A program made the translations under genes and the position numbers. From an uncultured virus (IMG/VR IMGVR_UViG_3300043473_000054) (lineage: Duplodnaviria; Heunggongvirae; Uroviricota; Caudoviricetes), in the IMG/VR virus record IMGVR_UViG_3300043473_000054: a DNA stretch of 20,101 nt. One strand, given 5' to 3'. The stretch's first letter is position 1; each line of letters starts with the position of its first letter. Shown here one piece after another: positions 3,345 to 16,223 of this stretch. The notes under the pieces are model-generated. The model ran no database searches. It saw nothing but the letters and a program-made list of their open reading frames with translations, and had not been told where the DNA came from.

Positions 3345-3905
3345 ATGGGCAACTGCCGCATCCATGACTGGAGTGACGCGCGGATTGCGCTGCTGACGGA
3401 GCTGTGGCTCGGCGGCGTGACGGGCGGCGAGATCGGCCGCCAGATGGGCGTCTCGCGTAGTGCCTGCATGGGCAAGCTTCGCAGGCTCGGCCTGCTGCGC
3501 CAGGACCGGCCGCGGATGCCGATCGTACGGCGGGTTGCTCGGCTGCTCAAATCAAGTGAGCAAGTGAGCAGGCCGCCGGAAAAGGTGCCGAATAAACGGC
3601 ATTTACGGCAGAACAAGCGGCCGCTGCCACCGCCGGAGCCATACCGGGCGCCTCCGCCGCCGCCCGTGCCGGCGATCGGCAGCTTTGATCTGCTCGACTT
3701 GCGAGCGGGACATTGCCGCTGGCCAGGGCCGCAAGACAGCCCCCCGTGGACCTTCTGTGGAGCGCGCCAGGCGTTCGACAGCAGCTACTGCCCAGAGCAC
3801 CACGCCCTAGCCCATAACCGCGGCAGCCAGCGCGACTTCGACCGCCAGGCCGAGCAGGCGCTCGCGGGCAAGCTCTTCGCCTCCCGCGCGGGCATTGAGC
3901 AATGA
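3345..3905 (+). CDS. gcrA: GcrA-family cell-cycle regulator homologue
   Basis: N-terminal DWSDARIALLTELWLGGVTGGEIGRQMGVSRSACMGKLRRLGL and C-terminal LLDLRAGHCRWP...FCGA...SYCPEHHALAH match both GcrA domains. Confidence 0.92.
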   Translation: MGNCRIHDWSDARIALLTELWLGGVTGGEIGRQMGVSRSACMGKLRRLGLLRQDRPRMPIVRRVARLLKSSEQVSRPPEKVPNKRHLRQNKRPLPPPEPYRAPPPPPVPAIGSFDLLDLRAGHCRWPGPQDSPPWTFCGARQAFDSSYCPEHHALAHNRGSQRDFDRQAEQALAGKLFASRAGIEQ

Positions 3906-4348
3906 GCAAGCTGCGCCGCACCGTGGTTTCGCTGGCCGAGGCGAACGCCTTCGTGACGGCGCACCATCGCCATCACCAGCATGTCGTCGGGCACAAGTTC
4001 GCCATTGGCGCGGTCGCAGACGGGACGCTTGTCGGGGTCGTCATTGTCGGCCGGCCTGTCTCGCGCATGCGGGACGATGGCAAGACACTGGAGGTGACGC
4101 GGCTCTGCACAGACGGCAGCAAGAACGCCTGCTCGTTCCTATATGGCTGCGCGGCCCGTGCGGCCTTCGCGCTCGGGTATGAGCGCATCGGGACATACAT
4201 CCGGCTGGACGAGCCTGGCACGTCGCTGGTGGCGGCTGGGTGGCGAAGAATGGGCCTTGCCGGCGGCGGTTCATGGGACAGGCCGAGCCGCCTGCGCACC
4301 GACAAGACAGAACCCGTGCAGCGCCAACTATTCGAGCTGGCCGCATGA
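3902..4348 (+). CDS. XF1762-family (Mom/GNAT-like) protein
   Basis: EANAFVTAHHRHHQHVVGHKFAIG...GVVIVGRPVSR..DDGKTLEVTRLCTDGSKNACSFLYG...E.GTSL.AAGW motifs. Confidence 0.8.
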   Translation: MSKLRRTVVSLAEANAFVTAHHRHHQHVVGHKFAIGAVADGTLVGVVIVGRPVSRMRDDGKTLEVTRLCTDGSKNACSFLYGCAARAAFALGYERIGTYIRLDEPGTSLVAAGWRRMGLAGGGSWDRPSRLRTDKTEPVQRQLFELAA

Positions 4349-4542
4349 GCATGCGCCTCGTCCCCTACGCCGGAACGGAGCGGCAGCGGCTCTTGCTGCG
4401 CAGCTACACCGAATTGCTGGAGGAGATCCTACTGCGGCAGCGGCGGGGAAGGCTGCTCTCCGAAATAGGCGATAGGCTCGGCTCGCGCGAGATCGTGCGG
4501 TCGGTGCTGCTGCGCTGGCTGTTCGAGGTTCCTGATGCGTGA
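4345..4542 (+). CDS. Hypothetical protein (65 aa)
   Basis: MSMRLVPYAGTERQRLLL...; ATGA overlap with the upstream gene. Confidence 0.55.
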   Translation: MSMRLVPYAGTERQRLLLRSYTELLEEILLRQRRGRLLSEIGDRLGSREIVRSVLLRWLFEVPDA

Positions 4543-4608
4543 ACGCAACGGGAACATTGTGTCTTTCATGTTTTGGCGTGGCTCGCAAACCGCTCCAGAG
4601 TCAGTGCC

Positions 4609-5049
4609 ATGAAGCACGCCAGAGACCTTTTTGGCCATGTGATCAAGGGGCCGCGCGAGGATGCGATCCATGCCGGCATAGTCGAATATCTTTGTCTCTG
4701 CGCGCACCCGAAACTGCTTTGGCTGCACGTGCCAAATTCCGCGATGGTGAAGCCCTCGGCGCGAATGTATTTCGCTCGCCTCGGCGTGCTTCCAGGCGTC
4801 GCTGATCTGCTCTTCGTGCTGCCGGACAAGTCCGTCGCCTTCATGGAGATAAAAGGCCCTGACGGCCGGCTGAGCGAGGCGCAGCAAGCCTTCCAGGCGA
4901 AGTGCGCGCTGCTGAAGCTGAAGTATCGCGTCGTGCGCTCGATCAGCGAGGCGGAGGAGGTACTCCGCGACTGGAATGCGCTGCGCGGCCCGGCCATGGA
5001 CAAAAACTGCGAACCGGCTGCCGATAGAGGGTTGCGTAGCGTGGCGTAA
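4609..5049 (+). CDS. VRR-NUC domain nuclease (PD-(D/E)XK, putative Holliday junction resolvase)
   Basis: EDAIH...HVPN...GVLPGVADL...FMEIKGPDGRLSEAQQAF pattern. Confidence 0.88.
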   Translation: MKHARDLFGHVIKGPREDAIHAGIVEYLCLCAHPKLLWLHVPNSAMVKPSARMYFARLGVLPGVADLLFVLPDKSVAFMEIKGPDGRLSEAQQAFQAKCALLKLKYRVVRSISEAEEVLRDWNALRGPAMDKNCEPAADRGLRSVA

Positions 5050-5086
5050 AAAATATCAGGCCGAGGCCTCCCTGCCCCGGCCTGAT
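5047..5086 (-). terminator. Hairpin that reads as a minus-strand intrinsic terminator
   Basis: ATCAGGCCGAGGC/GCCCCGGCCTGAT stem (5055-5086) preceded on the plus strand by AAAAAA, giving a U-tract on the minus strand. Confidence 0.55.
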
Positions 5087-5133
5087 TAACTGAAGCCTGA
5101 ACTGGAGGCCTCAAGTGTTATTACAGCATAGAT

Positions 5134-6048
5134 ATGGCTGACTTTCCAGCCCTGCCTTTATGGACGGACGCCTATCTGGCGGACACTGCCGACCTCGATG
5201 CATGCGAGCACGGCTGCTACCTGATCCTGCTGATGATCTCGTGGCGGCGGCATGATTGTGCGCTGCCAAATGACCTGAAATGGATGCAGCGATCGCTCAA
5301 TGCATATTGCGGCGGGAGTATTCACGGCAACCGCTTCAACAGCATCGTTCCGAAGCTTCTGGAGCGCTTCTTCCAACTAGGTCCGGACGGGAAATTTCAC
5401 CAGAAAAGACTACGAAAAGAGCGCGATTTCGTTTTGAATTTCTCTAGAACTCAATCCGAAATCGCTAAGAAACGGTGGGCCAAAGTAAGGAAAGACAAAG
5501 AGTTAGCTGATGCCGTGGCAATGCCGGCTGGCAATGCCCCCACACCCACACCCACACCTATAGTAAGAGAAGATGCTAACGCATCTTTGTCCGAAACGAG
5601 TTCGGACACGCTCGCCAACGAGACGCCAAAACGAAGAAAGCGGGTTAGCTACCCTCCAGACTTCGAGGCGTTCTGGACAGCGTTTCCGACTGATGCCCTG
5701 ATGTCGAAGAAGGCCGCAGGGCTGGTCTGGTCACGAATGTCGGAGGACGTGCGCCAGTTGGCGATGGCGTCCTTGGCAGCATTCCGGGCCTATTGCACGA
5801 GCAAGCCGGATTACCGGCCTGTCCACGCGGTTAGATACCTCACGCAGGAGCGCTTCGTCGGCTTCAGCGAGGTGGTAAGCAAGGCCGCCGGGAAGGTTTT
5901 TGTCGCCAAGGGCACTCCGCAATGGACGGCCTGGCAACGTGTCCAGCACAGCTCCTGCGTGACGTCCGCCGAGCATCGGCAAGATGGTTGGTGGTTCGAG
6001 AGCGAATGGCCAAACGGGGAGCATTCGGATGAGCGAAAAACCGCGTGA
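5134..6048 (+). CDS. DUF1376 (YdaU-like) phage replication initiator-type protein
   Basis: MADFPALPLWTDAYLADTADLDACEHGCYLILLMISW...LPND...QKRL..ER N-terminus; PTPTPTP linker; YPPDFEAFWTAFP...SKKAA C-terminal domain. Confidence 0.85.
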   Translation: MADFPALPLWTDAYLADTADLDACEHGCYLILLMISWRRHDCALPNDLKWMQRSLNAYCGGSIHGNRFNSIVPKLLERFFQLGPDGKFHQKRLRKERDFVLNFSRTQSEIAKKRWAKVRKDKELADAVAMPAGNAPTPTPTPIVREDANASLSETSSDTLANETPKRRKRVSYPPDFEAFWTAFPTDALMSKKAAGLVWSRMSEDVRQLAMASLAAFRAYCTSKPDYRPVHAVRYLTQERFVGFSEVVSKAAGKVFVAKGTPQWTAWQRVQHSSCVTSAEHRQDGWWFESEWPNGEHSDERKTA

Positions 6049-7838: not shown

Positions 7839-8120
7839 CTAAACGCGGAGCTTGCGCTTCAGGTTGCTCTCGGCATGGATGACGGAGCGCTTGGAGCGTC
7901 CAAGGTCCGACAGGTCAAAGCCCCAGTCGGGCGGTCGATAGCCGGAGAGGTAGGCGAAGATCAGCTTGCGCATCGTCTCGGTGACGGGGCGATGTGACTT
8001 GTCGGACGGGTCCATCTCCAGGCGGCGGATGTGCGTCGGGGTGACGCCGAGCATGCGCGACATGCCGGTGATGGAGAGGCCGAGCGCGGTGCGCGCGGCC
8101 CTGAACTCGGCGGGGGTCAT
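7839..8120 (-). CDS. XRE-type HTH regulator, Aca-like (93 aa)
   Basis: MTPAEFRAARTALGLSITGMSRMLGVTPTHIRRLEM HTH; ATGA-coupled to the upstream acidic ORF. Confidence 0.85.
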   Translation of the reverse strand: MTPAEFRAARTALGLSITGMSRMLGVTPTHIRRLEMDPSDKSHRPVTETMRKLIFAYLSGYRPPDWGFDLSDLGRSKRSVIHAESNLKRKLRV

Positions 8121-8353
8121 CGACTGGTCGGGATGTGGCGGGTCAGCACCCACTGGTCACCGGGGGCCTGCATGTAGGCGCTGAAAGCCTCGTCCCAGAT
8201 GTCGTCGTCCCATTCCACGTCATGCTCTGCGGCGTCGGAGCGGTATTCGGGGAAGAAGTTGCCAAAGCTCTCCTTGTCGAAGTGGCTGCCCTCGCGGGCA
8301 TCTTCTTCAAGAGCTTCTTTCACCATGTAGGCGATGAGCGTTTCGCGGGTCAT
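8117..8353 (-). CDS. Small acidic protein (78 aa), candidate anti-defence factor
   Basis: AGAAAGGA SD; 19 D/E versus 7 K/R; aromatic-rich; function is inference only. Confidence 0.7.
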   Translation of the reverse strand: MTRETLIAYMVKEALEEDAREGSHFDKESFGNFFPEYRSDAAEHDVEWDDDIWDEAFSAYMQAPGDQWVLTRHIPTSR

Positions 8354-8401
8354 CTCGGTTCCTTTCTGGCGAGCCGTTGCGGCTCTCAATCTCCACACCA
8401 T

Positions 8402-8451
8402 GAACCATTGGTTCGAGGCAGTCCAATCACAAGTATGTGAACCAATGGTTC
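8402..8451. promoter_or_regulatory. Twin palindromic operators GAACCA-W-TGGTTC
   Basis: Perfect inverted repeats at 8402-8414 and 8439-8451, both in TGAACCAWTGGTTCGA context, in the divergent intergenic region. Confidence 0.75.
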
Positions 8452-8466
8452 GATAAGGAGGATCAC

Positions 8467-8667
8467 ATGAATGTTGGAGGCCTCCTCGGCCTGCTCATCT
8501 TCGTCATTATCGTCGTGGCGCTCGCAGCCTTGATCCTCTGGGTCGTCCAGTATTTCCTGCCCGAGGTCTATCCGCCCGCCCGCATCGTCGTCGGCGTCGT
8601 CGCCCTCGTCGCAATCCTCATCCGCGTCGCCGCATTCTTCGGCGTCGCTGCTGCTGCAATCTCTTAG
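8467..8667 (+). CDS. Small two-TM membrane protein (66 aa)
   Basis: AAGGAGG SD; two hydrophobic helices separated by FLPEVYPPAR. Confidence 0.8.
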   Translation: MNVGGLLGLLIFVIIVVALAALILWVVQYFLPEVYPPARIVVGVVALVAILIRVAAFFGVAAAAIS

Positions 8668-8678
8668 TGTGTACAGAC

Positions 8679-9026
8679 ATGCCATTCCAACCCGGCAACC
8701 AATTAGCTAACAAAATCAACAAGCAACGGCCGCGCATCATTACGCAGAACCTCATCGCGCTGCTGCATGAGGTGGACCCTAACGATGTCCCCAAAGTCCG
8801 GCGCTTCGCCGAGGCATTGCTCGCAAAGGCTCTTGAAGGCGATGTCGCGGCCATGAAGGAAGTCGCCGATCGCGTAGACGGCAGAGTGCCTGTGCAAGTG
8901 CAGGGCGATCCAGACAACCCTCTCGTCATCCAGACAGTCGTCCGCGAAATCGTTCACGTGGACACAACACAGCGGATCAATCCAAACGTCGCCCTGAGCA
9001 ATGCTGGCAATTCCAGAGCCGCTTGA
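8679..9026 (+). CDS. terS: Putative terminase small subunit (DUF5681-like)
   Basis: MPFQPGNQ...LLAKALEGDVAAMKEVADRVDGR.P...GDPDNPL motifs; directly upstream of TerL. Confidence 0.75.
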   Translation: MPFQPGNQLANKINKQRPRIITQNLIALLHEVDPNDVPKVRRFAEALLAKALEGDVAAMKEVADRVDGRVPVQVQGDPDNPLVIQTVVREIVHVDTTQRINPNVALSNAGNSRAA

Positions 9027-10314
9027 GGGCGATAAGCTCTACATCCGAACTGCGCCAGTCTTCGAGCCGCTCCTCGCGCCAGCCCGCTACAAGGGCGCCT
9101 ACGGAGGCCGCGGCTCTGGCAAGTCACACTTCTTCGCGGAGGCCCTCGTCGAGGAGTGCATCGTCACTCCAGGAACGGCCGCAGTCTGCATCCGCGAAGT
9201 CCAACGCACCCTCACCCAGTCAGCCAAGCGCCTCATCGAGCAGAAGATCGCGCAGCTCGGCGTGGGCCCGCTGTTTCGCATCCTCGACGACCGCATAGAG
9301 GCGCCGGGCAAAGGCCTCATCATCTTCCAGGGCATGCAGGATCACACGGCGGAGTCGATCAAGAGCCTGGAAGGCTTCCGTATCGCCTGGATAGAGGAGG
9401 CACAGACGCTGTCCCACCGCAGCCTCGCACTACTCAGACCGACAATTCGTGCAGAAAACTCCGAAATATGGGCCTCCTGGAACCCGCGCCGCAAGAGTGA
9501 CGCCATCGACGAGTTCCTCCGCCAGCAGAAGCCGCCCGGCGCAGTCGTCGTCGAGGCGAATTGGCGGGACAACCCCTGGTTCCCAGAGGTTTTGGTCTCA
9601 GAGCGTGAAATTGACCAAGAACGCTACCCAGAGCGGTATGATCACATATGGGAAGGCGGCTATGCCAAGGCGTTCGAGGGTGCTTATTTCGCCGCCGGGC
9701 TTAACGAGGCAAAGGCGCAGGGACGAATTGGGCGAGTGTCCGCTGACCCGCTATTACCGCTCCGAGCCTTTTTTGACCTGGGAGGCTCAGGGGCTTCCGC
9801 CGATGCCATGGCGATCTGGATTGTTCAGTGGGTCGGCCAGGAAATCCGCGTCCTCGACTACATCGAGGGCATGGGACAGGTGCTCGCCTACTACGTCGAC
9901 GAGCTGCGCCAGCGCAAATACGACAAGGCCATCTGCTACCTCCCGCACGACGGCGTGAACGCTAACGCCATCACCGGCAAGCGCTATGAAGATCATCTGC
10001 GGGAGGCAGGCTTTTCCGTCGAGCCGCCAGTGAAGAACCAGGGGCGTGGGGCCGCCATGATGCGCGTCGAGGCGGTCAGGCGGCTGTTCCCGCGCATGTG
10101 GTTCAATGAGGCAACGACGGAAGCCGGGCGCGATGCGCTGGGCTATTACCATGAGCGGCGTGATGACGACCGACAGGTGGGGCTCGGCCCGTCGCACGAT
10201 TGGAGTTCGCACGCGGCCGACGCACTAGGCCTCTGCGCTATCTGCTACGAGGAGCCGTCTCGGTCGGCGGGCTTTGGGCGGAAGCTGGTGTATCAGAAGC
10301 TTGGCATCGTCTGA
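9001..10314 (+). CDS. terL: Terminase large subunit, PBSX family
   Basis: Walker A GGRGSGKS, Walker B AWIEEAQ, SWNP, nuclease FFDLG and HDWSSHAADA motifs. Confidence 0.97.
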   Translation: MLAIPEPLEGDKLYIRTAPVFEPLLAPARYKGAYGGRGSGKSHFFAEALVEECIVTPGTAAVCIREVQRTLTQSAKRLIEQKIAQLGVGPLFRILDDRIEAPGKGLIIFQGMQDHTAESIKSLEGFRIAWIEEAQTLSHRSLALLRPTIRAENSEIWASWNPRRKSDAIDEFLRQQKPPGAVVVEANWRDNPWFPEVLVSEREIDQERYPERYDHIWEGGYAKAFEGAYFAAGLNEAKAQGRIGRVSADPLLPLRAFFDLGGSGASADAMAIWIVQWVGQEIRVLDYIEGMGQVLAYYVDELRQRKYDKAICYLPHDGVNANAITGKRYEDHLREAGFSVEPPVKNQGRGAAMMRVEAVRRLFPRMWFNEATTEAGRDALGYYHERRDDDRQVGLGPSHDWSSHAADALGLCAICYEEPSRSAGFGRKLVYQKLGIV

Positions 10315-10687: not shown

Positions 10688-11257
10688 GTGGCCAAGCTGT
10701 CCGTCTCCGAGGTGCAGGCCATCCTCAAGGGCGAGAAGAGCGACGCGCTTAGCGCAGCCGAGAGCAGCAAGCTCTCCGAGGAGCGGGCGCGGGCGCTCGA
10801 CTACTACCAGGGCGACATGGCACGCGACATGCCCGCTCCTGCCGATCGCTCCAAGGCCGTCTCGTCCGACGTGGCGGATGCCGTCGAGGGCCTGATGCCG
10901 TCGATGATGGAGGTGCTGCACGGCGGCGACGACGTGGTGGAGTTCGTCCCGACAGGTGCGGAGGACGAAGAGGCGGCGCAGCAGGAAACCGACTACGTCA
11001 ATTATGTATTCACGCAGAAAAACAATGGGTTTCTTATCGACTATACCTTTGTGAAGGATGCGCTGCTGTCGAAGGTCGCGATCGTGAAAGTATATTGGGA
11101 AGACAAGGAAGAGAGCATTGAGGAGAGCTTCTGGGGCCTGCCGGAGGCGGCCTACGGAATGCTGAAGCAGGCAAAGGACATCGACATCATCGAGCACACT
11201 GAGCGGCAGGGCATTCCCGGCCAGCAGCCGCGTGACGAGCAGCAGGCCGCTTACTGA
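10688..11257 (+). CDS. Portal protein, N-terminal fragment (189 aa)
   Basis: RARALDYYQG...RSKAVSSDVADAVEGLMPSMMEV...VEFVP...EDEEAAQQETDYVNYVF...FVKDALLSKVAIVKVYWE, typical of P22/SU10-like portal N-termini. Confidence 0.9.
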   Translation: MAKLSVSEVQAILKGEKSDALSAAESSKLSEERARALDYYQGDMARDMPAPADRSKAVSSDVADAVEGLMPSMMEVLHGGDDVVEFVPTGAEDEEAAQQETDYVNYVFTQKNNGFLIDYTFVKDALLSKVAIVKVYWEDKEESIEESFWGLPEAAYGMLKQAKDIDIIEHTERQGIPGQQPRDEQQAAY

Positions 11258-11637
11258 TGGGCAAGCGCAAGGGCGATCTTCCGCCATCTAGAGAGAGGCG
11301 TAAAGACAGGATACGTCGGCTGAATAAAGCGACGCTGATTGAGATGGTATTTGCCGAGGAGAAGAGGACCCACTTTTGGTTTGAGGAGAATAAGCACCAC
11401 AAGGATGCGCTGAAGCAGATGAAGCGTGAACTGGACCGCGCAAAGCACGACCTGCATGTGCATGGCGTGAATGGCGACTACCTCGGCATGTCGGTGCGTC
11501 TGGAGGTCGCCCAAGCTGAACTGCGCGGTGCCAAGGCAGACCTGAAGATCCTTGAGGAGGCACTCGCCGACAAGCAGGCCGGCAATCCCAATTGGGAGAA
11601 CGTGGCCGTGATGAAGATGCGCAAGGCGCGCTACTGA
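11257..11637 (+). CDS. Hypothetical basic coiled-coil protein inserted between the portal halves (126 aa)
   Basis: Intact ORF, TGATG-coupled at both ends, no portal or endonuclease motifs. Confidence 0.75.
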   Translation: MGKRKGDLPPSRERRKDRIRRLNKATLIEMVFAEEKRTHFWFEENKHHKDALKQMKRELDRAKHDLHVHGVNGDYLGMSVRLEVAQAELRGAKADLKILEEALADKQAGNPNWENVAVMKMRKARY

Positions 11638-13553
11638 TGGCCCTGCCTCCCTATCCCATGCAGCCTCCCGGGCCTCCCGGCGCAACCCCCGGGCTTGACC
11701 CGCGGGCCATGCCTATGGGGCCTCCTGGCGGCATGGGACCGCCACCGCCGGGAGGCCCGCCAGGGCCACCAGGGATGCCGCCAGGCGGGCCGATGCGTCC
11801 TCCCGGCCCTCCGCCGCCTCCTGGCGCTCCACCGCCTCCAGCGGGCATGCAGGGGCCTCCTGGCCCACCTCCAATGCCTCCACCTCCTCCGCCCATGCCG
11901 GAGACGGTGCATGACGTGAAGATCAGCCGCATCCGCAAATACGGCTGCGCCAGGGTCGAGAACGTGCCGCCGGAGGAGTTTGGCGTCTCGCGGCGGCAAC
12001 GCTCCGTCATGCTGCGCGACTGCGACTACTGCTACCACGAAGTCAGGAAGACGGAGGCCGAGCTTATCGCTGCCGGCTACGACAAGGAGCAGGTCAAGGC
12101 GCTGCCCGACTATGCCGGCGATGGCACGACGGAGGAGATCGCCCGCGACACGGTGGACGACAATGCATTGTCGGGGTCCGAGGGGCTGAACAAGGCCAAC
12201 CGGCAGATCCGCGTCACCGAGCACTACGTGATGATGGACTATGAGGGCGACGGCAAGCCGCGCCGCTATCGGGTGACGACGGCTGGCAGCGGTAGCGAGA
12301 TCCTGAAGCGCAAGGGCCGCCCGGAGATCGTGCCGGACATGGTGCGCTTTGCCGCCATGACGCCGTTCATCAATCCGCACCGCTTCTATGGCACGTCCAT
12401 TGCCGACCTCGTCATGGACATTCAGAGGATTAAGACTGCGTTACTCCGGCAATTGCTCGACAACGTCTATTTTTCCAACAACCAGCGCTTGGAAGTCGCT
12501 GAGGATGGGGCGACAAAGGACACGATCGACGACGTGCTGTCGAATAGGGTCGGCGGCATCATCCGCACCCGTCGCATCGGCTCGGTCGCACCTGTCCCGA
12601 ACCAGCCGATCGGAAGCTTCGTGTTTCCCATGCTGGAATACATGGACACGCTGCGGGAGTGGCGCACGGGTGTGACGCGGCAGGGCCAGGGCCTCGACCC
12701 GAACGCCTTGCAGAACATCGGCGAGCGGGCCGTGCTCGACGCGCAGAACGCCGCCCGCGCCAAGATGAAGCTCATCGCTCGCATCTTCGCCGAGACGGGC
12801 ATTCGGGAGATGTTCTGGCTGCTGCACGCGACGATCCGCCAGAACGCCAGTGAGGCCGAGACAGTGAAGCTGCGCGGCCAGTGGGTGAAGGTAGACGCGC
12901 AGGAATGGCGCGAGCGCAACGATCTCACCATCAACGTCGGGCTTGGCTCCGGCGACAAGAGCCAGGAAATCATGGTGCTGCGCGAGATCATGCAGATCCA
13001 GGGCAACGCCATGACGAGCCCGAAGATGACCGGGCTCGCTGGGCCGCAGCAGGTTTACAACACGGTCAAGCAACTCACGCGCAAGGCGGGGCTGAACTCA
13101 CCTGATCCCTACTTCACCGATCCGAGCAAGACGCCTCCGCAGCCTCCCGAGCCTTCTCCCGAGGAGAAGAAGGGCATGGCGGAGATGCAGTTGAAGCAGG
13201 CTGACATGCAGATGCGTCAGCAGGGCGCTATGGCCGACGCTCAGATGCGCCAACAGCAGGCGCAGCAGGACATGGCCATGCAGCAGGCCAAGGCGCAGCA
13301 GGATGCCGCGCTGCAGCGTGAGAAGTTCATGCTCGACGCGCAGCTTCAGCGTGAGCAGATGCAGGCCGACGCGGAATTGAAGCGGGCGCAGATTGATGCC
13401 GAATTGATGCTGAAGCGGGAGACGCTCGCGGCGGAACTGGCATTGAAGCGCGAACTTGCGATGGCTGGGCTGCAGCTCAAAGCCTCAATGCCGCCTCCGG
13501 GCTCGAATGGCGGCGGGACGAGCGGCGTGCACATAGGCGGCGAGCCAGGGTAG
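11637..13553 (+). CDS. Portal protein, C-terminal fragment (638 aa) with Pro/Gly-rich N-terminus and Gln-rich barrel
   Basis: HDVKISR...VENVPPEEF...PHRFYGTSIADLVMDIQRIKTALLRQLLDNVY...RTGVTRQGQGLDPNALQ...LIARIFAETG...INVGLG portal motifs. Confidence 0.92.
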   Translation: MALPPYPMQPPGPPGATPGLDPRAMPMGPPGGMGPPPPGGPPGPPGMPPGGPMRPPGPPPPPGAPPPPAGMQGPPGPPPMPPPPPPMPETVHDVKISRIRKYGCARVENVPPEEFGVSRRQRSVMLRDCDYCYHEVRKTEAELIAAGYDKEQVKALPDYAGDGTTEEIARDTVDDNALSGSEGLNKANRQIRVTEHYVMMDYEGDGKPRRYRVTTAGSGSEILKRKGRPEIVPDMVRFAAMTPFINPHRFYGTSIADLVMDIQRIKTALLRQLLDNVYFSNNQRLEVAEDGATKDTIDDVLSNRVGGIIRTRRIGSVAPVPNQPIGSFVFPMLEYMDTLREWRTGVTRQGQGLDPNALQNIGERAVLDAQNAARAKMKLIARIFAETGIREMFWLLHATIRQNASEAETVKLRGQWVKVDAQEWRERNDLTINVGLGSGDKSQEIMVLREIMQIQGNAMTSPKMTGLAGPQQVYNTVKQLTRKAGLNSPDPYFTDPSKTPPQPPEPSPEEKKGMAEMQLKQADMQMRQQGAMADAQMRQQQAQQDMAMQQAKAQQDAALQREKFMLDAQLQREQMQADAELKRAQIDAELMLKRETLAAELALKRELAMAGLQLKASMPPPGSNGGGTSGVHIGGEPG

Positions 13554-13914: not shown

Positions 13915-15003
13915 ATGTCTGAGCCAACCCAACCCGACGCGGGAGCGCCGGCACCCGAGCCTATTGCGCCCGTTCCCGAGCCTTCTACTCCTCCTCCATC
14001 TCCGCCGCCCTCCGACGCGCCAATTACCGCGCGCGAGGCCGCGGATCTCATTTCCGGTAAGACGGACAAACCTTCGGCACCAGATGGTGCTGACGCCGCC
14101 CCCGAAAGGCCCAGCGGCGAGACTGACGGTAGCGACGACCCTTCTCAGAAGCCCATCGACGCCCCGAGGTCATGGACGAAAGCCGACAAGGAAGCTTTTG
14201 CGAGCCTCCCCCGAGACACCCAGGAACGCATCCTGGCGCTCGACAGGACACGCGAGCTGGAATTGCGGCGCGGCCAAAACGAAGCCGCCGAGCAGCGAAA
14301 GGCCGCCGAGGCCCTGGCGCAGCAGGCGGAACAGGCACAAGCGCAAGCACGATGGCAGTATGAGCAGTCGCTGCCGCAGCAGGCGCTGTTGCTGGACGCC
14401 GAGTATCGAAAAGAGTTCGGGACGCCCACCTGGGACGATCTTCAGGACTGGCAACGTAACGATCCGCTCCGATACCAAGCATGGGATCTGGCCTACAAGC
14501 GGCTGACGCATGCGTCGGCTGAACTGCAGGCGCAGCAAGCCCAGCAAGCCCAGCAGCAGCAATACCAGCAGCAGCAATTCATGCAGAACGCGGAGGCGTG
14601 GAGGGCCGAGGAGGCACAGAAATTCGCTGAGGAATTTCCCGAGTGGAAAGACCCGAAAACCTATCAGGCGAATGTCTCCGAGGTCATGGATTTTATGAAG
14701 GACACCGGCTTCGAGCAGGACTTTCTGGCTCGCGCCGCTAGTGAGTTCCTGCCGATCCAGATCCACGATCACCGCTTTCAAAAGCTCGTCTGGAAGGCCC
14801 TTCAGTACGACAAGGCATTGAAGGCCACCAAGTCACCGTCACGCTCCCCTGTTCCTCCTGTCCAGCGTCCGGGCAGCGCTCCCAATCGGGGAGAGGCTCA
14901 AGAGGCTCGGTTCAAAGACCTCAACCGCCAATTGGACCGCACTGGCAGTCTCAAGGATGCCGCAAGGCTTATCGCGGCACTGAACGGCAGTCGGTCCCCG
15001 TAA
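13915..15003 (+). CDS. Capsid scaffolding protein
   Basis: Position before the capsid gene; disordered N-terminus, APRSW...FASLP motif, coiled coil, C-terminal TGSLKDAARLI helix. Confidence 0.85.
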   Translation: MSEPTQPDAGAPAPEPIAPVPEPSTPPPSPPPSDAPITAREAADLISGKTDKPSAPDGADAAPERPSGETDGSDDPSQKPIDAPRSWTKADKEAFASLPRDTQERILALDRTRELELRRGQNEAAEQRKAAEALAQQAEQAQAQARWQYEQSLPQQALLLDAEYRKEFGTPTWDDLQDWQRNDPLRYQAWDLAYKRLTHASAELQAQQAQQAQQQQYQQQQFMQNAEAWRAEEAQKFAEEFPEWKDPKTYQANVSEVMDFMKDTGFEQDFLARAASEFLPIQIHDHRFQKLVWKALQYDKALKATKSPSRSPVPPVQRPGSAPNRGEAQEARFKDLNRQLDRTGSLKDAARLIAALNGSRSP

Positions 15004-15012
15004 AGGACGACA

Positions 15013-16223
15013 ATGACAGTTCCAACAGATGTCTTTGCTACCTATCAGTCTATCGGTAACAGAGAGGACCTTAGCGATACCATCTATCGCATCTCGCCTA
15101 CAGAAACGCCATTTTTGAGCGGCGTTGAGAAGGTGAAAGCGAAGGCAGTGAACCACGAGTAACGACTACTGCTCGTGTAAAACTGGGTGAATTGCGGGGA
15201 AGCCCTACCGGGTAAGGCCGGGGGTAATCCGCAGCCAAGCCGCGCAAGTAGGCGAGAGCCGAGAGGTGCGGAAGGTTCAACGACTAGGCTCCGAGCGAAA
15301 GCGGTAATGAGCCCACGAGCGCCCAGCCCTTCGCAAGAAGGTGATGAGATAGTCTGAACTCCGATCGACGAGACGGAGAAGCAGCGGATAAAGAGCCGCT
15401 GCGATAACACATTGGGCAAGTTCAAAACCTCGCCGCGGCCTCCACTGCGAATGCTGTCTTGGAAGGCGACGACGCGACGATCGACGCCGCCACGCCAACG
15501 GTCAGGCTGGGAAACATCGCCCAGATCTCTGACAAGGTCGCGGCGGTGACCGGCACGGAGAACGCCATCGACCGGGCCGGGCGCGACAACGAGCTGTCCT
15601 ATCAGCTTGCGTTGAAAGGCCAGGAACTGAAGCGCGACATGGAGAGCATCCTGCTTTCCAACCAGGCGAAGAATGCCGGCGCAATCGGCACGGCGCGTAA
15701 GACCGCGAGCATACTGGCGTGGATCGGCACCAACGACAGCCTCGGGGCCGGCGCCGCTGCCTCTCCGGTGACTCTCGACGGTCTCGCCACGCGGACTGAC
15801 GGCACGCAGCGGGCGTTCACCGAGGCGTTATTGAAGCCGGTGCTGCAGCTCATCTGGAACGAGGGCGGCGATCCCGACACCATCATGGTCGGCGGCGCAA
15901 ACAAGCAGGCGTTCTCGACTTTCACGGGCCGCACCGGCACGGCCGGGCCGAATGAACAGACGACGAGCAAGAAAATCGTAAATAATGTTGAGATTTACGA
16001 AGGGGATTTTGGCACACTTAAAGTAGTGGCCAACCGCTTCATGAGAACACGCGATTGCCTAGTCTTGGAGATGGACAAGTGGGCCGTCGCGTATCTCAGG
16101 AATATGCGTCGCTGGGATCTGGCTAAAACCGGAGATAGCGAAAAGACGCAGATCCTCTGTGAATACGCGTTAGAGGCGAGGAACGAGAAAGCGTCGGGCT
16201 TGGTTGCCGACCTTACTCCGTAG
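15013..16223 (+). CDS. Major capsid protein (SU10/DUF5309 type), intron-split: join(15013..15160,15415..16223), 318 aa
   Basis: AAAGGA SD; exon 1 MTVPTDVFATYQSIGNREDLSDTIYRISPTETPFLS...AVNHE; T+GG restores W; exon 2 QVQNLAAASTANAVLEGDD...ELKRDME...LAKTGDSEK...EYALEARNEKASG. Confidence 0.95.
15161..15414 (+). ncRNA. Group I self-splicing intron (254 nt, no homing endonuclease)
   Basis: Exon ends in U, intron ends in G; P1 CACGAGT/GCTCGTG with U-G at the splice site; P3 CTGGGTG/CGCCCAG; P AATTGCGGGGAA; Q AATCCGCAGC; R GTTCAACGACTA; S GAGATAGTC; P7 GACTA/TAGTC; P8 CCTTC-GCAA-GAAGG; P9 stems. Confidence 0.95.

Follow-up and report, generated by a model that had tools for sequence, protein, structure and literature searches.

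In tailed phages and herpesviruses, the portal is regarded as a ring of 12-fold symmetry in which each subunit is one protein chain. In the stretch of DNA analysed here, 20,101 nucleotides from an uncultured soil virus of the Caudoviricetes (IMG/VR record IMGVR_UViG_3300043473_000054; the whole stretch is hereafter called the window), the portal gene is divided between two open reading frames (ORFs), and the portal of this SU10-type podophage would be made as an N-terminal polypeptide of 189 amino acids (N-half) and a C-terminal polypeptide of 638 amino acids (C-half). This arrangement is probably a genuine two-gene portal, whose parts are translationally coupled and reassemble by fragment complementation, and whose gap has become a site for accessory genes. 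Ribosomes ending one cistron would restart on the next through overlapping TGATG motifs, keeping the amounts of the products roughly matched, and the two chains would complement each other into one portal protomer, twelve such pairs forming the ring, as suggested by a fold model and by homology. After the split, the gap would be an ordinary intergenic site within a strongly expressed late operon, where accessory genes could settle.

The assignment of both ORFs to the portal family is based on profile matches that complement each other almost to the residue. The N-half covers positions 2-168 of the 593 positions of the Pfam profile SU10_portal (PF23899; E 1.1e-52, 179.7 bits against a cut-off of 30), and the C-half covers positions 167-593 of the same profile (E 3.6e-136, 455.5 bits, same cut-off). 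The PHROG portal family phrog_1216 is divided between the same two ORFs. The full profile is therefore carried by two ORFs in different frames, and no single polypeptide holds the family from end to end. Alignment with intact portals of solved structure gave the same picture: residues 18-168 of the N-half correspond to residues 25-172 in the 706-aa portal 9nwm_A, with similar matches in 7sxk_b and the SU10 portal 7z44_A, whereas residues 91-593 of the C-half align to residues 181-680 of 9nwm_A and 7sxk_b, which places the cut between two blocks that are about 8 residues apart in the single-chain portals. In unsplit relatives, the equivalent position is occupied either by a short linker (locus L015) or by a long Pro/Gln-rich one (L016 and L017), and the site of the cut is, as far as these alignments indicate, a variable loop. 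The cut lies in a surface linker, which is short in the solved single-chain portals and is long and of low complexity in the lineage of the window.

Three cistrons (the N-half, an insert ORF of 126 amino acids and the C-half) are linked in the window via two TGATG overlaps, and at both gene junctions, which read TAC-TGA-TGG, the stop codon overlaps the next ATG. The junctions lie within the two copies of a 9-nt direct repeat, TACTGATGG, spaced 380 nt apart. A preliminary description of this DNA, made from the letters alone, had already recognised portal motifs divided between the 189-aa and the 638-aa ORFs, as the family profiles bear out. It had also placed the start of the C-half at a TGATG overlap, which is indeed present, although the stop codon being overlapped is that of the insert ORF and not that of the N-half. 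Its observation that deletion of the insert would keep TAC-TGA-TG holds as well: removal of one TACTGATGG repeat unit leaves the junction TAC-TGA-TGG, and relatives without the insert, such as L005, show this junction naturally. The low-complexity Pro/Gly/Met start of the C-half, also described there, corresponds to a leader of 88 residues, of which 46 are Pro, 18 Gly and 10 Met, followed by the sequence ...HDVKISR...VENVPPEEF. This leader contains short tandem repeats with periods of 9 and 18, and its length varies between relatives (about 35 residues in L006).

That the split is genuine sequence is indicated by contigs of two sequencing runs. A linear viral record of 41.9 kb, estimated to be 93% complete, matches the window over 3101 bases at 100% identity. 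In run X1, an 831-base contig spans positions 10900-11707, including both junctions, with 0 differences, and in run X2 the stretch is tiled by contigs that also show 0 differences, with the proviso that the source sample may be one of these two runs. Independent assemblies carry the same junction at 72-97% identity. In a deep soil metagenome (run X4), contigs covering the insert occur together with others that skip 380, 388 or 392 bases, which indicates that insert-bearing and insert-free forms coexist in nature. The 380-base skip, seen in one contig of this run, lies between the TACTGATGG repeats, with 9 letters shared at the joint. Other contigs of the same run skip 63-148 bases inside the leader region (11665-11876 of the window).

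The distribution of the split among relatives was analysed with the conserved core of the C-half (C-core) as query. A scan of viral contigs yielded 246 relatives among 247 candidate stretches, and a search of prokaryote genomes, one per species, yielded 94 relatives among 173 candidates, the best 80 being kept in each case. In addition, 918 short relatives of the N-half were found. Together with the isolate record of the Bradyrhizobium phage ppBeUSDA76-2 (OP596614, locus L002), these gave 161 loci classified by script (L002-L162), of which L003 is the window's own record. The portal is split in 42 loci and reads as fused in 104, and in the other 15 an N-half is absent from the upstream flank examined. 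The fused class includes five loci that stop shortly past the junction and look broken (L090, L101, L115, L149 and L157) and three that run off the contig end. Five of the 15 loci lacking an N-half had a short flank, and each of the five N-half-lacking loci that were tested has the missing half in the same genome, with the C-half following 5.6-7.1 kb downstream of it. In the 42 split loci, between 5 and 3261 nt separate the stop of the N-half from the first residue conserved in the C-core, the frame offset between halves is +1 in 19, -1 in 16 and 0 in 7, and the N-half stop forms a TGATG with an overlapping ATG in 22 and a TAATG in one. A Microcystis phage record with two features named 'portal protein' was considered as another candidate and rejected, its 726-aa portal being unsplit.

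A tree of 122 distinct C-core rows (IQ-TREE quick search, LG+G4, unrooted) was built after leaving out L001, L003, identical sequences, short-flank loci and any hit that contained stops or covered less than 380 core residues. All 10 rows of the clade of the window (support 100) are split, six with adjacent halves and four with an insert. Likewise, all 31 rows of a Bradyrhizobium clade (support 100) are split at the same loop: eight have adjacent halves, one carries a small insert and 22 have halves far apart, a label that in nine of the 22 is based on there being no N-half within 4 kb (four of these nine were verified). Fused forms branch between both clades, the fused row L102 being sister to the Bradyrhizobium one, and at least four changes between fused and split states are needed on the tree, corresponding to the two clades plus the singletons L088 and L097, which come from metagenome bins. 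This topology, although taken from an unrooted quick-search tree, suggests that splitting at this loop probably had more than one origin. Within the Bradyrhizobium clade, the earliest branches have adjacent halves and the derived members carry inserts, an order that would fit a split that came first and cargo that arrived afterwards.

In the clade of the window, pairwise Nei-Gojobori ratios of nonsynonymous to synonymous substitution rates (dN/dS) range from 0.08 to 0.34 for the N-half (45 pairs) and from 0.07 to 0.23 for the C-core (36 pairs), with dS values of up to about 1.1, a pattern that clearly points to purifying selection maintaining both portal halves. Moreover, the TGATG split is present in the portal of OP596614 (ppUSDA76Be-2), reported as a podophage that Bradyrhizobium elkanii USDA 76 produces spontaneously and for which transmission electron microscopy and virion DNA reads mapping to the prophage are described in the available text of PMC10127595. 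A phage with a split portal thus appears to build DNA-filled particles. In the OP596614 record itself, the C-half (3471-5134, intact, 554 codons) is unannotated and the N-half is labelled as a hypothetical protein, which suggests that automated pipelines are likely to miss or mislabel split portals and to score the prophages carrying them as defective.

The fit between both chains was modelled by co-folding. The N-half and residues 1-440 of the C-core were modelled together from alignments of 46 and 44 rows, respectively, with a 1:1 pairing of the halves, and reached an interaction prediction score from aligned errors (ipSAE) of 0.75 (0.76, 0.74 and 0.75 in the separate runs), compared with 0.00 for the best of three controls; the mark used is reached by 116 of 157 solved complexes and by 2 of 215 mismatched pairs. 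The predicted complex has about 445 contacts, at least 92% of them common between runs, and a partner predicted local distance difference test (pLDDT) value of 79. Strands 131-136 of the N-half pair with strands 21-25 and 152-155 of the C-core, and the cut ends (164-181 of the N-half and 1-28 of the C-core) lie side by side in the interface. The model shows that the two predicted pieces still resemble a single portal protomer, which is a statement of likeness and not of binding.

Several observations weigh against a coupled two-chain portal. The co-fold may reflect the memory of the model, since the single-chain portals 7z44, 7sxk and 9nwm have been solved, and no RNA run is among those listed as containing the stretch. 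The word 'portal' occurs 0 times in the available text of PMC10127595, and the functional argument drawn from that phage rests on particle production only. Coupling through overlapping codons is not universal, as 19 of the 42 split loci lack an ATG overlapping the N-half stop. Some of the loci counted are decayed prophages, as indicated by L173 (the same locus as L141), on a Bradyrhizobium chromosome, where the C-half matches at 7842-9315 fall in two frames and the gene looks frameshifted and probably decayed. Finally, RNA folds of nine 121-nt segments around the junctions were no more stable than those of shuffled sequences, with z-scores from -2.33 to +2.57 and only one of the nine below -1, and a consensus fold of five insert-bearing junctions gave a covariation term of +0.28, with compensatory change in 2 of 35 pairs.

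Other explanations for the split have to be weighed against this background. Errors of sequencing or assembly, or the decay of the portal gene in a defective prophage, could be suspected from the metagenomic origin of the contig, from a capsid gene that seems broken at first glance, and from the extra frameshifts or early stops of L173/L141, L090, L101, L115, L149 and L157. Such an origin is very improbable given the identical contigs of two runs, the recurrence of the junction in independent assemblies, the strong purifying selection on both halves and the estimated completeness of the matching viral record, and the break in the capsid gene corresponds to a group I intron whose predicted splicing would give back a full-length frame. 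The conserved and selected split, together with the relative reported to produce particles, also upholds the earlier statement that this is not a simple frameshift error. On the other hand, a full-length portal might be obtained by recoding, be it a programmed frameshift, the bypass of the stop codon or ribosome hopping over the insert. Relative to the N-half, the C-half is in the -1 frame in every one of the eight loci with adjacent halves of the viral and phage set, and the identical TACTGATGG copies flanking the insert superficially resemble take-off and landing sites. However, any TGATG overlap brings a -1 offset automatically, an X XXY YYZ slippery heptamer is absent from the 21-nt stretch open in both frames, and a ribosome that resumed at the second TAC would run into the same TGA again. 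The mixed frame offsets and the wide range of gaps, which extends to about 7 kb in the five further genomes, fit no single recoding event. With neither the slippery heptamer of programmed -1 frameshifting at the portal junction nor its conserved frame relation among the 42 split loci, recoding of any kind is most unlikely.

The halves could also be joined after transcription or translation, either by an intron removing the stop region or by a split intein, and this genome does use self-splicing RNA in its capsid gene. Nevertheless, Rfam models revealed no intron in positions 11050-11950 even at E values of up to 1, the sole match being a chance small nucleolar RNA (E 0.046), whereas the same scan detected the group I intron of the capsid gene. 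The stop codon and the frame offset persist in relatives without the insert, SU10_portal is the only Pfam family in either half, and the N-half tail past the portal homology has only about 11-20 residues, too short for an N-intein, whose size is roughly 100 amino acids. Joining by either route is accordingly an extremely remote prospect. Somewhat less improbable, although still unlikely, is that the C-half alone forms the portal ring and that the N-half has become a separate protein, whose function in the virion would be a different one or dispensable. The separation of the halves by up to about 7 kb in Bradyrhizobium genomes would agree with this idea, as would partial extra N-half copies fused to unrelated sequence, such as a 257-aa ORF in L174 (3137-3907), which indicate that the N-half module can be shuffled by itself. 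Against it, the N-half is intact and under purifying selection wherever the C-half occurs, its strands pair in the co-fold with those of the C-core within one domain, and the homologous residues belong to a single chain in the solved portals. A portal of two chains, as proposed in the preliminary description, is in any case the best reading of a split that is conserved and under selection, and whose chains co-fold well above the controls, with the caveat of model memory given above.

The insert ORF that separates the two halves in the window has few relatives of any kind. Neither a Pfam nor a PHROG family was matched, tblastn gave no match at E<=0.01 in 50,697 phage records, and its model has no fold match in the PDB at E<=0.001. 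The ESM Atlas returned unnamed viral helical proteins only (0.91), and a profile search of 5.8 billion protein clusters returned only 15 relatives (59-221 aa), none of them with a Pfam family. An AlphaFold (AF2) model (pLDDT 85, predicted template modelling score 0.39) predicts an all-helical protein arranged as a helical hairpin, with helices at 11-20, 24-68, 75-107 and 113-125. A homing endonuclease of the HNH, GIY-YIG, LAGLIDADG or other classes was considered and rejected, given the lack of any Pfam or PHROG family. Of the 13 split viral loci in the clade of the window, its own record excluded, 6 contain homologues, with amino acid identities of 88% (L004), 75% (L018), 51% (L011 and L012) and 40% (L008), spread over four sublineages and all at exactly the same site between the portal halves. 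They share a C-terminal motif, KILEEAL...AGNPNWEN...KMRKARY, and the last 30 residues or so are nearly invariant. At the DNA level, the last 90 nt or so of the ORF (11545-11637 of the window) are far better conserved among five relatives than the rest, a feature for which neither RNA folding nor covariation accounts.

The dN/dS of the insert ORF is 0.39-0.86 (10 pairs), and its dS of 0.16-0.94 is similar to that of the portal, which implies that the insert dates back to the crown of the clade or earlier. Judged by these rates, the insert is a real and fast-evolving gene, about as old as the clade of the window, and its patchy occurrence would reflect either repeated loss or exchange through recombination. 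An insert of this age could itself have caused the split in the clade of the window. The earlier proposal that the split predates the insert is consequently uncertain in the clade of the window; in the separate Bradyrhizobium clade, the branching order would fit a split that preceded the cargo.

In the Bradyrhizobium prophages, the gap between the portal halves holds from 1.4 to about 7 kb of DNA with a lower guanine-cytosine content (0.49-0.68 per 500 bases). Most of its ORFs belong to no family, and those that could be assigned include Peptidase_M23 (L108, L172 and L175), lysozyme-inhibitor Ivy domains (L138, L147, L174 and L175) and PHROG pieces similar to transglycosylases or lysozymes (L138, L174, L175, L176 and L135). 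The 257-aa ORF of L174 ends in a partial N-half (Pfam profile at 77-161), and its first 150 residues are unmatched; extra partial copies of the N-half near the split site are also found in the Bradyrhizobium genomes L169, L170 and L171. A bolder and rather doubtful idea is that splitting at an outer loop, more than once at the same position, turned the portal into a dock for cargo. The cargo (the helical ORF, the M23, transglycosylase/lysozyme-like and Ivy proteins and the N-half chimeras) would be translated in step with the halves and would end up inside the virion or attached to the portal, to be delivered together with the DNA, and the two-chain form might also blunt portal-sensing immunity.

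The features of the locus and of its neighbourhood are listed in Table 1.

Table 1. Features of the split portal locus and flanking genes, in window coordinates
Feature	Position	Strand	Basis and remarks
Large terminase subunit	9001..10314	+	Pfam Terminase_3, E 1.7e-30; PHROG terminase large subunit families; directly 5' of the portal locus
Portal N-half gene, 189 aa	10688..11257	+	GTG start; TGA stop at 11255-11257; protein ends in ...QQAAY
Repeat TACTGATGG, copy 1	11252..11260	.	Repeat search; N-half stop overlaps the start of the insert ORF
Insert ORF, 126 aa	11257..11637	+	No Pfam or PHROG matches; starts on the TGA of the N-half
Repeat TACTGATGG, copy 2	11632..11640	.	Repeat search; stop of the insert ORF overlaps the C-half start
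Pro/Gly/Met-rich low-complexity leader of the C-half, 88 aa	11637..11900	+	Composition; variable length
Portal C-half gene, 638 aa	11637..13553	+	ATG start; SU10_portal match
Head scaffolding protein	13915..15003	+	phrog_3927, E 1.8e-18; 3' of the portal locus
Major capsid gene	15013-16223		SU10_MCP; 3' of the scaffold gene

The order of large terminase, portal, scaffold and capsid genes places the split portal in the position expected for an SU10-type phage. A group I intron devoid of ORFs interrupts the major capsid gene (SU10_MCP profile 61-292, in the ORF 15459-16220) at about 15161-15414, and was detected as a match over the full length of the Rfam model RF00028 at 15103-15378 (60 bits, cut-off 50). 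Joining T15160 to G15415, as predicted for splicing, would create an open frame of 318 amino acids that aligns from end to end with the 316-aa capsid protein of ppBeUSDA76-2, with 58.5% identity and no gap at the joint. The intron was matched in none of the 17 related loci scanned, some of which end short of the capsid gene. Elsewhere in the window, the ORF 3902-4348 has a PHROG match to Mom-like DNA modification proteins (phrog_1384, E 4e-33), its Pfam Mom match lying below the cut-off.

Among the papers listed by a literature search, with subscription journals outside its coverage, none describes a split portal; some of them deal with genes located between terminase and portal. The occurrence of the split in two clades, and in a prophage reported to produce particles, suggests that the N-terminal module of the portal is a separable unit, and split portals would offer a natural system for the study of portal folding, ring nucleation and fragment complementation. 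The site of the split may likewise be regarded as a previously undescribed hotspot for accessory genes. The preliminary description had also invoked evasion of host sensors that recognise the portal, such as the Avs-type systems; if two-chain portals did alter this recognition, they would represent a new kind of escape, which is at present a speculation.

The closest known proteins are the single-chain SU10-type portals (PF23899; 7z44_A, 7sxk_b and 9nwm_A), which belong to the same family as the halves over the whole profile and occupy the same neighbourhood, with the large terminase upstream and the scaffold and SU10-type capsid genes downstream. The solved examples, however, are one chain of 705-747 amino acids, whereas the portal of the window is cut between the equivalents of residues 172 and 181, approximately, and has in addition an 88-aa Pro-rich leader on the C-half and a separate gene in the gap. 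A second parallel is offered by the 'genes in pieces' of T4-like phages, which reportedly include the nrdA gene of Aeh1, split by mobE, and the topoisomerase genes 39/60 of T4. In both situations, two ORFs separated by a foreign one encode a protein that is essential and normally a single chain, and the pieces presumably reassemble in a non-covalent manner. In contrast to those genes, the insert ORF of the window bears no homing-endonuclease signature in Pfam or PHROGs and the portal split persists without the insert in many relatives; moreover, the T4-like examples are enzymes, whereas the split protein described here is a subunit of a virion ring. Finally, insertion sites for morons and other accessory genes are known in phage late operons. 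In Arthrobacter phages, according to the available text of PMC5513430, non-structural genes are inserted between structural genes. Like those sites, the portal gap harbours variable accessory genes among conserved structural ones, riding on late transcription, but unlike them it lies inside what is elsewhere a single gene.

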